A DNA stretch of 64,000 nucleotides from Prevotella sp. (GCA_051875605.1 JBJEHA010000013.1:3648-67647); one strand, 5' to 3'. Counted from the stretch's first letter, positions 4,738 to 60,032 are shown. Numbers and translations: made by a program. The notes: generated from the letters alone by a model not told the origin.

Positions 4738-5279
4738 CAAATTGTCAGAATTTTGTATATTTTCGTGACACTTTGATTTTTTGGCCATTTATGGATAATC
4801 ATGCGAGAGTGGAATTTTGTGCACCAGCGGAATTTTTGGGTTCCGGAGAGCTGTTTTGTAAACCATTGATAATCAATGGAATAAGTTTTTACATCCGGAA
4901 AGTGTTAACAAAAATCACCCGATTTTAACCTAAAATCCGTTAAATTCGTGCACAAAACAGCCAGTTTGTGCAGTTTTCAGTCCCCTTTTTTCGCACTTTT
5001 GGCCGGAAAATTGCGGTTTTGGGGTAGAAAAACCTGAGTTTTTGCCCCGAAACAGTTAAGTTTTTCCTCAAAAACACTTAAGTGCCGGATCGAAAATAGT
5101 TAACTAATTTTCTGGAAACAGTTAAGTGTTTCCCCCCTAACACTTAACTAATTTTTCCGTTTTGTGCAAAAAACCGACAATTCACACTTATTAACATGAA
5201 AACCAACCTAAAACCACCTGTTTTTCAAGACCACAAAAAATCAAAGTGTCACGAAAAAGCCAGTTTTCGTGACACTTTG
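4738..5279 (+). repeat. 542-bp dispersed intergenic element, copy 1
   Basis: End modules at 4738-4775 and 5242-5279; TTAA boxes at 5056/5078/5100/5122/5144; colinear with five other copies. Confidence 0.95.
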
Positions 5280-14248: not shown

Positions 14249-14790
14249 CAAAGTGTCAGATTTTTAACACTTTTGCTTACATTTTGATTTTCCAGCCATT
14301 TCTGAAGATTCGGAGGGAACCTGGTTTTTGCGCGCCAACGATTTTTTTTGATTTTGGACGGCTGTTTTGTAAATCATTGATAGTCAATGAGATGATTTTT
14401 TAAAGACCGGGAGTGTTAAAGAAAATCGTCCGATTTTAACATAAAATCCGTTAAATTTATGCACAAAATGCGCGGTTTGTGCAGTTTTCAGCCCCCTTTT
14501 TTCGTACTTTTGGCTGGAAAATCGCGGTTTTGGGGCCGAAAAACCTGAGTTTTTGCCCCGAAACAGTTAAGTTTTTCCTCAAAAACACTTAAGTGCCGGA
14601 ACGAAAATAGTTAACTAATTTTCTGGAAACAGTTAAGTGTTCCCCCCCTAACACTTAACTGATTTTTCCGTTTTGTGCAAAAAACCGACATTTTGCACTT
14701 GTTAACATGAAAATCGGCTCAAAACCGCCTGTTTTTCAAGACCCCGAAAAATCAAAGTGTAAGCAAAAACGTTAAAATTCTGACACTTTG
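14249..14790 (+). repeat. 542-bp dispersed intergenic element, copy 2
   Basis: End modules at 14249-14286 and 14753-14790; first TTAA box at 14567 (offset 319, as in copy 1). Confidence 0.95.
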
Positions 14791-25593: not shown

Positions 25594-26134
25594 CAAAGTG
25601 TCAGGATTTTAACACTTTTGCTTACACTTTGATTTTTCGGCATTCGTAAAAGCGGCCAGTTTTGGGTCGATTTTCATGTTAATAAGTGTGAATCGTCAGT
25701 TTTTTGCACAAAACGGGAAAATCAGTTAAGTGTTAGGGGGGAAACACTTAACTGTTTCCAGAAAATTAGTTAACTATTTTCGATCCGGCACTTAAGTGTT
25801 TTTGAGGTAAAACTTAACTGTTTCGGGGCAAAAACTCAGGTTTTTCGGCCTCAAAACCGCGATTTTCCGGCCAAAAGTGCGGAAAATGGGGGCTGAAAAC
25901 TGCACAAACTGGCTTTTTTGTGCACGAATTTAACGGATTTTAGGTTAAAATTGTGCGGTTTTTGTTAACACTTCGCATCAGTAAAAAATATACCATTGAT
26001 TATCAATGGTTTACAAAACAGGCCTCCGAAACCTGGAATTTACGCTGGCGCAAAAAAATCCGAATTCGCCGGATTCTACAGAAATGGTCGAAAAATCAAA
26101 GTGTAAGCAAAAATGTTAAAAAACTGACATTGTG
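25594..26134 (-). repeat. 541-bp dispersed intergenic element, copy 3 (reverse orientation)
   Basis: End modules at 25594-25631 and 26097-26134; one 1-nt deletion relative to the other copies between offsets 142 and 165. Confidence 0.95.
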
Positions 26135-36624: not shown

Positions 36625-37166
36625 CAAATTGTCACATTTTCGTTCATTTCTGTGACACTTTGATTTTTCAGGATTATGAAAAAAAGGCGGTTTGAGGCTG
36701 ATTTTCATGTTAATAAGTGTGAATTGTCGGATTTTTGCACAAAACGGGAAAATTAGTTAAGTGTTAGGGGGGAAACACTTAACTGTTTCCGGAAAATTAG
36801 TTAACTGTTTTCGTTCCGGCACTTAAGTGTTTTTGAGGAAAAACTTAACTGTTTCGGGGCAAAAACTCAGGTTTTTCGGCCTCAAAACCGTGATTTTCCA
36901 GCCAAAAGTGTGGAAAAAGGGGGTTGAAAATTGCACAAATCGCGTGTTTTGTGCGTAAATTTAACGGATTTTAGGTTAAAATTGGACGGTTTTTATTAAC
37001 ACTTTCCGTCCATAAAAACTTATCTTATTGATTATCAACGGTTTTCAAAAAAGGTCTCTGAAACCGAGAAATTCCGCTGGCGTTCAAAAATACACTTCCG
37101 TCTGATTCTTCAGAAATGGCCGGAAAATCAAAGTGTAAGCAAAAGTGTTAAAAAAATGACACTTTG
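36625..37166 (-). repeat. 542-bp dispersed intergenic element, copy 4 (reverse orientation)
   Basis: End modules at 36625-36662 and 37129-37166; first TTAA box at offset 319. Confidence 0.95.
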
Positions 37167-46478: not shown

Positions 46479-47020
46479 CAAAATGTCAGAATTTTGACGT
46501 TTTTTGTGACACTTTGATTTTCGGGCCATTTATGAAGATTTGGGCGAGAACGGATTTTTATGCGCCAGCGGAAAATTCCGGTTTTGGAAGACTAATTTGT
46601 AAACCATTGATAATCAACGGGATAAGTTTTTACAATCACAAAGTGTTAACAAAAACCGCCCGATTTTAACCTAAAATCCGTTAAATTCGTGCACAAAACG
46701 CGCGATTTGTGCAGTTTTCAGCCCCCATTTTCCGCACTTTTGGCCGGAAAATCGCGGTTTTGAGGCCGAAAAACCTGAGTTTTTGCCCCAAAACAGTTAA
46801 GTTTTTCCTCAAAAACACTTAAGTGCCAAGACGAAAATAGTTAACTAATTTTTCGGAAACAGTTAAGTGTTTCCCCCCTAACACTTAACTGATTTTTCCG
46901 TTTTGTGCAAAAAACCGGCAATTCACACTTATTAACGTGAAAATCGGTCAAAAACAGCCCGTTTTTCAGCACTCAGAAAAATCAAAGTGTCAGCAAAACC
47001 GTTAAAAATTTGACACTTTG
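46479..47020 (+). repeat. 542-bp dispersed intergenic element, copy 5
   Basis: End modules at 46479-46516 and 46983-47020; first TTAA box at 46797 (offset 319). Confidence 0.95.
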
Positions 47021-47107: not shown

Positions 47108-47127
47108 CAGCGGCTTGCAAAATGCAA

Positions 47128-47245
47128 GCTAAAGGGGTGCCCGCTGTGGCGGGCTGAGATCAGACCCTCTGACCTGATCCGGGTAATGCCGGCGTAGGGA
47201 TTTGGCAAAACATAAAAAGTGCCCCTTTTTGTGTATTCTTTTTTT
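47128..47245 (+). ncRNA. TPP (thi-box) riboswitch with terminator-type expression platform
   Basis: P1 GCTAAA/TTTGGC (47128-47133/47201-47206); GGGGTGC...GCTGAGA...ACCTGATCCGGGTAATGCCGGCGTAGGGA core; hairpin ACATAAAAAG/CTTTTTGTGT (47210-47234) plus a T-rich tract. Confidence 0.92.
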
Positions 47246-47258
47246 ATTAGCAACATTC

Positions 47259-49580
47259 ATGAAAAAATTTTCAATGCTTCTTGCCGCAGCCTTGTGCGCT
47301 GGCGCCAATGCCCAGGCAGGATGGAGAACCGAACCGGTGGACACAGCTGAGACCCACGTGCTGCAGGATGTGCAGGTAGTGGCAACAAGAGCCGGAAAGA
47401 ACACGCCTATGGCATTCAGCAACATGGGCAAACAGGAAATTGCACGCGAGAACTACGGTAAGGACCTGCCGCAGCTGCTCTGGCTCATGCCTTCGGTAAC
47501 TGTATCGTCTGACGCTGGTATGGGCATCGGCTATACTGGCATCCACGTGCGCGGTACTGACCCCACACGCATCAACGTGACGGCCAACGGCATTCCAATG
47601 AACGATGCAGAGAGCAGCCAACTCTACTGGGTGAACATGGGCGACTTCGCATCCAGTCTTGAGAGCATCCAGCTACAGCGTGGCGCAGGTACATCTACAA
47701 ACGGCGCGGGCGCATTCGGAGCAACACTCAACATGCAGACGGAAAACATCGGCTCACAGCCTTACGGCAGCCTTGACCTCTCGGCCGGTACATACGGCAC
47801 ACACAAGGAAACGTTCCGCTTCTCTACAGGTCTGCTTGGCGGTCACTGGGGTTTCCAGGGACGCTTGTCAAACATAAGCAGCGACGGCTATATTGACCGC
47901 GCACAGTCAAGGCTCGGCTCCTATTTCCTGCAAGGCGGATATTTCAGCGACAACACCATGGTGAAACTCGTGACATTCAACGGCAAGGAAAAAACCTATA
48001 TGGCATGGGACTATACCTCAAAAGCCGACATGGAACGGTACGGACGCACCTACAACCCTTGTGGACAATACACTGCCGCCGATGGTTCGACAGCCTATTA
48101 CAGCAACCAGACCGATAACTATCACCAGCAGCACTACCAGCTCATCTGGACACAGCGCATGGACAGCAAATGGAGCCTGAACACGGCACTGCACTATACA
48201 CGTGGCGACGGCTATTACGAGCAGTTCAAGAGCGGACAGAAACTGTACAAGTATCTGCTGTCCAAAAAAGAAGATGGTCTATATGCCGACCTCGTAAGGC
48301 AGAAGAAGATGGAGAACGACTTCTACGGGGCAATCGCCGCGCTGAACTATGACAACGGCAATGGCATCCAGGCCACTGTAGGCGGTGGATGGAACAAGTA
48401 CGACGGCGACCACTTCGGCAAGCTGCTCTGGGTGGGCAGTCCGTATATGGAAATGACGACAGCCGATGGCGATGACTACAACGACTACCGAGGCGGGAAT
48501 ATCGTGACTTCACCCGACCATGAATATTATCGCAACAATGCCAAGAAGACCGATGGGCATTTCTACGGCAAGCTGACATGGGAAATCGTGAACGGACTGA
48601 GCATATTTGCCGATGTACAATACAGGCATGTAGGATATAAGATGAGCGGTTTGTCACAGGAGTTCGACGGCAACACGCAGCTTCCGCTTACGCTCGACAA
48701 GAAGTATGACTTCTTTAATCCCAAGGCAGGTCTGTCATGGACTCCCGCTGAAGGCCATAGCCTGTATGCTTCCTATGCCATTGCCCACAAGGAACCTACG
48801 CGCAACGACTTCGAGGACATGATGGCCGAGACGGATGTGGTGAACCCGCAGGCCGAAAGGCTCAACGACCTGGAAATAGGCTATCGTTATGAGAGCAACC
48901 GTTTCCATGCCGGTGTCAACCTTTACTATATGGACTACGACAACCAGTTCGTGCTCACCGGCGCACAGGACTCCAACGGCGAGATGGTGGCACGCAACAT
49001 AAAGGACAGCTACCGCATGGGCATGGAACTGACTGCCGGGTGGAACATTGCCAAAGGTCTTGACTGGAACGTGAACGCCACATGGAGCAAGAACAGGGCC
49101 AAGGACATGAGCCTGACCGTGATCAATGAGGACTGGAGCCAGTCGTATGTCAATGTGGGAACAACTAAACTGGCCTTCTCCCCCGACCTCATTGCCAGTA
49201 GTGTGTTGAGCTACGGGTACAAGGGATGGCGCGCCGCATTCATGACAAAATACGTGGGCGAACAGAATATGACCAACTCCGGTTTCAAGCGTTTCCTCAA
49301 CACGGACGGACAGACTTATACAAGTGCAGTGATTGATGCCATGTGCGTGAGCGACCTCGACCTTTCCTATACATTCAGGTGGAAAGGCGTGAAGGAAGCC
49401 ACTGTGGGCGTGACCATATACAACCTGTTCAACGAGGAATATGAAAGCAACGGAAGCTGCAGCATGAACTTCAAGAACGACGGCGGAAAGGTTGTGGCCT
49501 ACGATGGGGGATGGGCATGGGCTACCTATTCAGCACAGGCACCCACACACTTCCTGGCACATCTGTCCATAACATTCTAA
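47259..49580 (+). CDS. TonB-dependent receptor, probable thiamine uptake
   Basis: Signal peptide from ATG 47259, LQDVQVVA TonB box, plug IQLQRGAGTS, terminal SITF; lies under a TPP riboswitch. Confidence 0.88.
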   Translation: MKKFSMLLAAALCAGANAQAGWRTEPVDTAETHVLQDVQVVATRAGKNTPMAFSNMGKQEIARENYGKDLPQLLWLMPSVTVSSDAGMGIGYTGIHVRGTDPTRINVTANGIPMNDAESSQLYWVNMGDFASSLESIQLQRGAGTSTNGAGAFGATLNMQTENIGSQPYGSLDLSAGTYGTHKETFRFSTGLLGGHWGFQGRLSNISSDGYIDRAQSRLGSYFLQGGYFSDNTMVKLVTFNGKEKTYMAWDYTSKADMERYGRTYNPCGQYTAADGSTAYYSNQTDNYHQQHYQLIWTQRMDSKWSLNTALHYTRGDGYYEQFKSGQKLYKYLLSKKEDGLYADLVRQKKMENDFYGAIAALNYDNGNGIQATVGGGWNKYDGDHFGKLLWVGSPYMEMTTADGDDYNDYRGGNIVTSPDHEYYRNNAKKTDGHFYGKLTWEIVNGLSIFADVQYRHVGYKMSGLSQEFDGNTQLPLTLDKKYDFFNPKAGLSWTPAEGHSLYASYAIAHKEPTRNDFEDMMAETDVVNPQAERLNDLEIGYRYESNRFHAGVNLYYMDYDNQFVLTGAQDSNGEMVARNIKDSYRMGMELTAGWNIAKGLDWNVNATWSKNRAKDMSLTVINEDWSQSYVNVGTTKLAFSPDLIASSVLSYGYKGWRAAFMTKYVGEQNMTNSGFKRFLNTDGQTYTSAVIDAMCVSDLDLSYTFRWKGVKEATVGVTIYNLFNEEYESNGSCSMNFKNDGGKVVAYDGGWAWATYSAQAPTHFLAHLSITF

Positions 49581-59490: not shown

Positions 59491-60032
59491 CAAAATGTCA
59501 GATTTTCAGCCGATTTTGTGACACTTTGATTTTTCGCGGTCTTATAAAAAAGACTATTTTGGCCGGATTTTCATGTTAATAAGTGTAAATTACCGGTTTT
59601 TTGTACAAAATGGAAAAATCAGTTAAGTGTTAGGGGGGAAACACTTAACTGTTTCCAGAAAATTAGTTAACTATTTTTGTTCCGGCACTTAAGTGTTTTT
59701 GAGGCAAAACTTAACTGTTTCGGGGCAAAAACCTATGTTTTTCGGCCTCAAAACCGCGTTTTTCCGACCAAAAGTGCGGAAAAAGGGGGCTGAAAACTGC
59801 ACAAATCACGAGTTTTGTGCATGAATTTAACGGATTTTAGGTTAAAATCGGACGCTTTTTGTTAACACTTCACACCCATAAAAAACTACCCCATTGATTA
59901 TCAACGGTTTACAAAACAAGTCTCTAAAACCCAAAAAATACGCTGGCACGTAATAATCCGATCTCGCCCGACTCTTCAGAAATGGCCAGAAAATCAAAGT
60001 GTAAGCAATTGTGTTAAAAAACTGACACTTTG
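59491..60032 (-). repeat. 542-bp dispersed intergenic element, copy 6 (reverse orientation)
   Basis: End modules at 59491-59528 and 59995-60032; first TTAA box at offset 319. Confidence 0.95.

Follow-up and report, generated by a model that had tools for sequence, protein, structure and literature searches.

Bacterial interspersed repeats are usually regarded as junk or as small regulatory hairpins. One such repeat, found in a 64,000-nt stretch of an assembly from an uncultured Prevotella sp. (GCA_051875605.1 JBJEHA010000013.1:3648-67647; hereafter the window, from whose first letter positions are counted), carries a ladder of A and T runs spaced at about one helical turn. Is the element kept for the shape that these runs give to the DNA, or is it the remnant of a mobile element, a carrier of promoter signals, or a structured RNA? 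A first-pass annotation had chosen the first answer, describing the ladder as strongly curved DNA and the element as a bent or wrapped platform, selected for its shape, rather than an RNA or a coding region. Using the copies of the repeat in the whole source genome, we weigh this reading against its rivals and arrive at a guarded preference for a version of it: with a probability of roughly 0.45, the element is a platform of pre-bent DNA serving a protein that wraps or oligomerises.

Anatomy of the 542-bp repeat

The ladder is the inner part of a longer element, whose first copy in the window is organised as follows (features without polarity are marked as having no strand).

4738..5279, + strand: copy 1 of the whole 542-bp interspersed repeat, from repeat families D1-D6 and I1-I24 and the six-copy alignment
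4738..4775, no strand: left 38-bp palindromic end unit, CAAAGTGTCAG-N16-CTKACACTTTG, degenerate in copy 1
4863..4879, no strand: dyad CCATTGATAATCAATGG, from the hairpin listing; its minus strand matches WATCAANNNNTTR, an IHF-like consensus
4886..5074, no strand: A/T ladder of 18 A or T runs; its dyad units, about 8 in number, measure ~21.4-22 bp and have variable G/C cores
4921..4937, no strand: dyad GATTTTAACCTAAAATC within the ladder, its columns invariant in 85 copies
4949..4972, no strand: dyad TGCACAAA-N8-TTTGTGCA, with invariant arms and a hypervariable spacer
5050..5152, no strand: five TTAA-centred palindromic boxes at an exact 22-bp pitch, the most conserved part of the element
5120..5149, no strand: 11-12-bp inverted repeat made by boxes 4 and 5 around a C6 run, with zero variation in 85 copies
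5242..5279, no strand: right 38-bp end unit, in copy 1 a perfect 20-bp-stem hairpin between A and T runs

Six copies lie in the window, at 4738-5279 (+), 14249-14790 (+), 25594-26134 (-), 36625-37166 (-), 46479-47020 (+), and 59491-60032 (-). The genome as a whole holds 169 loci, of which 63 are cut by contig ends, and we therefore estimate ~140 elements, equivalent to 2.4% of the 2.83-Mb assembly. Length is held tightly, with 542-543 bp separating CAAAGTGTCAG from CTGACACTTTG in 81 of the 85 full genome copies. The two ends form terminal inverted repeats of 38-46 bp, and each end is itself a palindrome; the 38-bp end units number ~245 in the genome and occur in pairs ~505 bp apart. The 4-5 nt immediately outside them are A4 or T4, in either polarity, and no consistent direct repeat that could represent a target-site duplication was found in the flanks of the 85 copies.

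Inside these ends, the dyad at 4863-4879 (TTGATAATCAA) retains its IHF-consensus-like motif in 62 of 85 copies and, judging by the consensus, may be a site for IHF. The boxes have their TTAA centres at 5056, 5078, 5100, 5122, and 5144, and the five-box pattern matched 108 copies in the genome and nothing outside the elements.

Other repeats accompany the element. Module B (...gattcagctcccggaagcaggaaactgtcgggaatgccactgggggtgtgggcgtcccgcccgcacat) is present at 73 loci, 62 of them within 120 bp of a 542-bp element (e.g., C30:129823, C19:20656, and C90:73021), while a third module, C (ggggagggaaccgtaatttgagggcattcttgaggtgg), borders other 542-bp elements, and one 542-bp element is centred in a perfect palindrome whose arms reach 57 bp or more. 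There may thus be a larger composite with the 542-bp element at its core.

Phased tracts and their 22-bp unit

The sixteen runs originally listed at 4910-5074 are all present at their given coordinates, two of them (4942-46, A3TT; 5007-12, A4TT) not being pure runs. The ladder also extends two tracts further 5' than 4910, to give 18 tracts in the family consensus over the equivalent of 4886-5074. Fourier analysis of an indicator of A/T runs of at least 3 places the peak at 10.7 bp, the period first proposed, with a power of 11.95 (z 16.2). The control was a set of 2000 dinucleotide-preserving shuffles, which had a mean power of 1.10 (sd 0.67), and 0/2000 matched the ladder at any period between 5 and 20 bp. 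The comparison of AA/TT periodicity with shuffled controls, which had been suggested as a check, gave the same answer, as both the AA/TT and the plain A/T (W) indicators agree with 10.7 bp, and a sliding analysis delimits the periodic zone to ~4890-5090. All six copies in the window, with 16-17 runs each, peak at 10.7 bp with powers between 11.4 and 13.2, as in the following list of ladders.

Copy 2, ladder 14397..14585 (element 14249-14790, +): 17 runs, period 10.7, power 12.8
Copy 3, ladder 25799..25986 (element 25594-26134, -, with one 1-nt deletion): 16 runs, period 10.7, power 11.4
Copy 4, ladder 36830..37018 (element 36625-37166, -): 17 runs, period 10.7, power 13.2
Copy 5, ladder 46627..46815 (element 46479-47020, +): 16 runs, period 10.7, power 12.0
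Copy 6, ladder 59696..59884 (element 59491-60032, -): 16 runs, period 10.7, power 12.5

The signal is confined to the family. Across the 2.83-Mb assembly, every sliding 165-bp segment with a power of at least 8 (1608/1608) falls within a family copy, and the highest value outside the family is 7.8. Among the 85 full copies, 16 of the 18 tract positions are occupied in at least 82 (>=96%), and tract polarity is kept, with flips between A and T nearly absent. The best phased-tract segments outside the element (C72:12385-12575, C78:21090-21280, and C29:33585-33760; power 6.8-7.8) are also intergenic, and helically phased tracts appear to be a general trait of spacers in the source genome.

The phasing has a further layer. 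Base-identity autocorrelation of the ladder reaches 0.47 at lag 22 (z 6.5, rising to z 8.3 when the boxes are added) and 0.43 at lag 43, and there is no signal at lag 11 (0.24, z -0.5). The 10.7-bp ladder is thus the half-period of an array of ~22-bp dyad units. Written in 22-nt lines, the unit takes the form CG-AAAA-core-TTTT-SS, an A-arm and a T-arm about a core, and the interior of the element consists of ~13 such units of 21.4-22 bp, a pitch of two helical turns. The left ~8 units have variable G/C cores, and the next five, which continue the array unbroken, have invariant TTAA-centred palindromic cores. The phasing is equally well explained by an array of sites for a dimeric protein or by a decayed minisatellite as by pure selection on shape.

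Predicted curvature

Within each unit, the A-run and the T-run lie half a unit apart, an arrangement that puts a narrow minor groove on the same side of the helix at 10.7-bp intervals and would produce a static bend of ~240°. We modelled the path with two wedge models, Bolshoy-Trifonov and AA-wedge, using approximate parameter values. In these models, the ratio of end-to-end distance to contour length is 0.41 for 4890-5090 and 0.36-0.48 across 85 of 85 full copies, against a mean of 0.94 and a first percentile of 0.70 for random genome segments and 0.30 for a synthetic ideal A6 array. Both models predict a bend of ~240° in every copy, and the predicted curvature of the ladder is the strongest in the genome. 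The description of the ladder as strongly curved DNA is thereby upheld at the level of model prediction. With a helix of 10.45-10.5 bp per turn, the predicted path winds to the right; with 10.7 it stays in a plane, and with 11.0 it winds to the left. A right-handed path is the sense of the gyrase wrap.

Divergence of the copies

Variation was computed, and a tree built, from the 85 full genome copies. The fraction of variants differs by column class.

Arms, G/C sites: 0.23
Arms, A/T runs: 0.10
Ladder, G/C sites: 0.11-0.17
Ladder, A/T runs: 0.026
Box core: ~0.04

The ladder thus survives where the intervening bases differ, as had been proposed, its A/T-run columns varying at 0.026 against 0.11-0.17 for its G/C columns. 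Compared with the arms, ladder A/T runs are ~4 times less variable and ladder G/C sites only ~2 times, and the box core contains stretches of at least 40 columns without any change in 85 copies. We rejected CpG hypermutability as the cause of the variable blocks, since in the arms G/C sites outside CpG are as variable as those within it. In a singleton test for post-insertion decay, nearly all variants recurred among the 85 copies.

The tree is star-like, with a mean terminal branch of 0.118 and a mean internal branch of 0.021, and no pair of copies exceeds 93% identity, which together point to independent divergence of the copies and no recent transposition. Other public metagenome assemblies contain the same copies at the same loci. 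The nearest sampled relatives share only ~70% amino-acid identity, which leaves ample time for an old, lineage-specific expansion, and synteny with them breaks at the element. Uneven variation, fixed length, and a star-like tree argue for purifying selection on each copy in place.

The proposal that this selection acts on DNA shape is borne out in part. In its favour, ladder A/T runs vary ~4 times less than arm A/T runs; against it, polarity and sequence are conserved as well. Conservation of tract polarity and sequence, and not of shape alone, weighs against the platform reading.

The same data bear on the main rival, in which the element is an immobile relic of a selfish non-autonomous transposon of the MITE or foldback type. 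The 22-bp array would then be what is left of an internal minisatellite, or else a group of sites bound by the transposase, and the curvature would be an aid to the transpososome or incidental. The body plan suits such an origin well, the element being short, non-coding, high in copy number, exclusively intergenic, species-specific, and closed by terminal inverted repeats of 38-46 bp, with module B repeats and long outer palindromes beside many copies. The pattern of decay suits it poorly. A dead element should decay evenly and gain indels, whereas here the rates differ 4-6 fold from region to region and the length is invariant; identity among copies stops at 93%, and no empty sites were seen in other samples of the source species. 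Nor do the surroundings point to a mobilising partner: the flanks are A4 or T4 in either polarity with no target-site duplication, and within this one assembly, no transposase with matching ends was found among unit pairs, wider-spaced pairs, solo units, or Y1 transposases. On balance, we hold this relic to be doubtful, though more credible than the other alternatives discussed below.

Coding and RNA signals

The element shows no sign of being a gene, in agreement with the non-coding assignment made at the outset. No frame stays free of stops for more than 62 codons, this longest one is open in fewer than 62% of copies, and the variation lacks 3-periodicity.

Its conserved arms and variable cores do look like stems and loops, and one could imagine that the element is transcribed into a structured RNA, or into a series of hairpins or terminators, with the A/U arms as stems and the variable cores as loops. 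The sequence folds well (MFE z -7.5) and contains 6 terminator-like hairpins where 0.7 are expected. The opposite strand folds equally strongly (z -6.6), however, and equal folding of both strands indicates DNA palindromes rather than a strand-specific RNA. RNAalifold, applied to both strands of the 85 copies, gave no covariation above slid controls, with compensatory pairs inside the control range (5 against 4-7 on the + strand, 12 against 5-13 on the - strand) and the predicted pairs sitting in invariant columns. Searches of Rfam at gathering and E-value thresholds returned chance hairpin matches only. Stems of 4-5 bp made of A-U pairs alone are weak, and the copies have no orientation bias. 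With no known family, no excess covariation, and neither strand asymmetry nor orientation bias, the earlier dismissal of an RNA is sustained, and we rate this alternative as very improbable.

Genomic placement and spacing

All copies in the genome set are intergenic, and their neighbours are housekeeping genes (xseA, a glucosaminidase, an ABC-F protein, PPi-PFK, MatE, and TonB-dependent receptors). For 85% of copies, the host intergenic region contains at least one promoter, and divergent regions are enriched (29/96 against 20% expected, p 0.013). Curvature upstream of promoters is a well-established feature in bacteria, and the element could be a carrier of transcription-factor sites or promoter architecture, supplying an UP-like bend, serving as an operator, or titrating a regulator as a decoy. 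The recurrence of the TGCACAAA-N8-TTTGTGCA dyad upstream of etfB adds to this case. In four other Prevotella species, the dyad, with a spacer of N8 or N9, lies 100-200 bp upstream of etfB (ETF beta subunit, PF01012; loci L142, L154, L152, and L148, around 1500-1700), and a dyad of the same type with one mismatch precedes etfB, within the same range of distances, in the source genome (L158:2474-2497), where an element copy (C80:76042-76562) also lies ~0.9 kb upstream of the gene. The dyad may be an operator common to etfB and the element. Against a promoter carrier, spacer length is not constant among the etfB dyads (8 or 9); copies have no orientation bias toward flanking genes (26 same, 20 opposite) and no fixed distance from them; 14 copies lie between convergent genes; and 140 identical modules beside unrelated genes are hard to square with specific regulation. 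We consider this explanation quite unlikely.

A TPP riboswitch (RF00059, 75.4 bits) lies at 47123-47218 on the + strand, ~100 bp downstream of copy 5, and extends over the TTG start listed for a TonB-dependent receptor ORF (47202-49580).

The spacing of copies was measured inside contigs only, the assembly being fragmented, with 63 contig ends within elements. Of 96 within-contig intervals, 3% are shorter than 7 kb, compared with 43% expected from random intergenic placement (P<0.0002), and the interval CV is 0.50 rather than the 0.91 of random placement. Loss of short contigs is not the cause, since the assembly is broken at only about one element in four. The excess over 8 kb follows an exponential distribution (mean 8.6 kb, sd 7.9 kb, KS p 0.23), and successive copies are randomly oriented. 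The scarcity of short intervals and the exponential tail together describe a hard exclusion zone of ~8 kb with random placement beyond it, and no true period. This pattern counts against a platform, as hard-core exclusion with an exponential tail is the expected legacy of target immunity and not of periodic functional placement. It is what the transposon relic would leave behind, its 8-kb exclusion reflecting either target immunity or selection against ectopic recombination between near copies.

Comparison with known systems

The element has counterparts among several described systems, each of which it resembles in some features and departs from in others.

(i) Strong gyrase sites. The E. coli gyrase motif spans 130 bp, with two 47-bp periodic arms about a 36-bp cleavage core, and its arms alternate G/C and A/T at ~10.75 bp, which is read indirectly by the wrapping enzyme; BIME-2 elements behave as strong gyrase sites independently of transcription (PMC6379681). 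The period of the ladder, 10.7 bp over 190 bp against ~10.75-bp arms in a ~130-bp footprint, resembles that of strong gyrase sites (Mu SGS, pSC101 par, and the E. coli motif), a resemblance only: gyrase sites have periodic arms split by a core, whereas the periodicity of the ladder is unbroken over ~190 bp.

(ii) BIME and REP sequences of Enterobacteria. Shared with these are an extragenic location, high copy number, and opposed palindromic units of ~35-40 bp with conserved linkers between them; the 38-bp units at both ends and the solo units likewise form mosaics. By analogy with BIMEs, including the IHF-binding RIP and RIB, the element would act at the level of DNA with architectural proteins. 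It differs in size (542 bp against 40-300 bp for BIMEs), in its 18 phased A/T tracts, five-box 22-bp array, strict length, and 8-kb exclusion zone, and in its location, mostly in promoter-containing spacers rather than at 3' ends. The only RAYT-like Y1 gene of the genome (C47:866-1210) has GTAACCGCGSCGCGGTTAC palindromes, and no CAAAGTGTCAG units, on its two sides and looks like part of a separate REP system. An IS200/IS605 element with tnpA and tnpB (C32:1106-1471, on a 2.7-kb contig) is unrelated to the repeat.

(iii) BrickBuilt. These MITEs of Porphyromonas gingivalis contain internal 23-bp minisatellites of variable unit number, are bounded by IS5-type 12-bp TIRs (GAGACCTTTGCA), and occur in 10-20 copies (PMC4596501). 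They offer a precedent for the transposon relic, and the likeness covers a Bacteroidales host, a non-coding and intergenic nature, terminal inverted repeats, and an internal array whose units measure about two helical turns. Unlike BrickBuilt, the element has a fixed unit number, ~140 copies, units diverged into A/T-arm dyads, and neither a TSD nor a matching IS. MITEs more generally are also short, non-coding, dispersed in many copies, and closed by terminal inverted repeats; of their further traits, a target-site duplication and an autonomous partner or recent mobility were not found for the element.

(iv) Iterons of plasmid origins and the end repeats of Tn7 and Mu. The element shares with these its specific boxes at a 22-bp, two-turn pitch. 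Tn7 and Mu are known for 22-bp transposase-binding repeats and for target immunity, and this combination is a second precedent for the relic. Unlike iterons and Tn7 or Mu ends, the boxes of the element are palindromic and internal rather than direct and terminal, and no rep gene, transposase, or AAA+ regulator adjoins them. An iteron-type replication origin was rejected, given ~140 chromosomal copies, palindromic boxes, housekeeping neighbours, and no plasmid match.

(v) Kinetoplast-type bent DNA. The likeness lies in the helix-phased A/T tracts, in phasing beyond chance, and in predicted curvature above the genome background, with a planar bend of 0.41 against 0.30 for the A6 control. Unlike kinetoplast DNA, the element mixes A and T runs in a 22-bp dyad unit, inside a dispersed bacterial repeat.

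With no TSD, no partner, and a non-cognate RAYT gene, the element lacks defining traits of each named family. We would class it among the bacterial interspersed mosaic repeats, as a variant akin to BIMEs or to minisatellite-bearing MITEs.

Distribution and related arrays

The family seems peculiar to its source species. None of 185,579 species genomes contains the exact core 32-mer; in ~400-425 congeners, searches by BLAST and with a sequence profile found only distant box- or ladder-like arrays and no 542-bp family; and plasmid, phage, and viral-contig collections gave no matches. We found no published description of the element in the literature. A family restricted to one species among ~425 congeners looks more like selfish DNA than like the bearer of a core chromosomal function.

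More distant arrays are common. Five STTAAS boxes at a 22-bp pitch occur, among the matches listed, at many loci of Prevotella, Bacteroidaceae, and Segatella albensis, and Bacteroidales account for about three quarters of the 81 matches listed. Some of these loci have AACACTTAAGTGTT-type boxes like those of the element; many are plain 22-bp tandem repeats. Arrays of at least five STTAAS boxes are also seen in Phocaeicola and in Segatella albensis DSM 11370, often several per genome (L014-L094). Beside the TTAA-box arrays of other genomes, no comparable ladder was found, the power being at most 6 among the matches listed. Other Prevotella have intergenic A4-N5-7-T4 arrays at a ~22-bp pitch with other cores, for instance CAAAACCTATGCTTTTG repeated (L141/G013, L145/G300, L144, L149, and L153), in which A/T runs recur with a period of 10.6-10.9 (z 10-17). 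In Prevotella and Bacteroidaceae, intergenic spacers are filled with 21-23-bp, two-turn arrays, a wider habit without prior description.

A tentative model

The preferred reading, that of a pre-bent platform, is thus a qualified form of the one initially put forward. The predicted bend and the lack of RNA or coding signals support a bent or wrapped structure, and conservation of sequence beyond shape, together with the origin of the phasing in a dyad unit, speaks against a pure platform. From these patterns, we infer protein binding, the kind of protein bound, and any role at the level of the chromosome. The element would function as double-stranded DNA, in which the specific boxes and dyads would recruit a dimeric or oligomerising DNA-binding protein; candidates include a nucleoid-associated protein or a gyrase-type wrapping enzyme. 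The recruited protein would lie on, or wrap, the pre-bent ladder, and the two 38-bp hairpin-type end units with their A4/T4 flanks would bound the platform.

A bolder extension, which we think unlikely, is that of a domesticated repeat, in which ~140 pre-bent, protein-wrapped platforms act as gyrase anchors or as points of nucleation for a nucleoid protein. Lying at least ~8 kb apart and insulated by hairpins, they would set or stabilise supercoil domains of ~10 kb, and the two-turn arrays of other Bacteroidales would be variants of the same solution.

The element unites the strongest predicted curvature in the genome with fixed length, region-specific conservation, and a minimum spacing of ~8 kb. 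If a protein wraps it, the element would provide a sequence-defined handle on how the chromosome of a gut or rumen member of the Bacteroidales is partitioned into topological domains. To our knowledge, this partition has so far been approachable only statistically, and chiefly in E. coli.

Assembly breaks and solo end units

The repeat has a practical consequence for sequencing. In the other public assemblies that include the flanking genes, the contigs all stop inside the element (L007-L013 and L120-L123), which makes it a systematic breaker of short-read assemblies for the source species in every sample examined.

The 38-bp end units also occur alone, without an element, at ~10 places in the genome (C11:19917, C29:52316, C29:62220, C46:17, and others) and at 14 loci in JGI metagenome contigs (L124-L137). 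These solo units are mainly perfect long hairpins of the form CAAAGTGTCAC-AAAAC..GTTTT-GTGACACTTTG, often only a few bases from the ends of ORFs.
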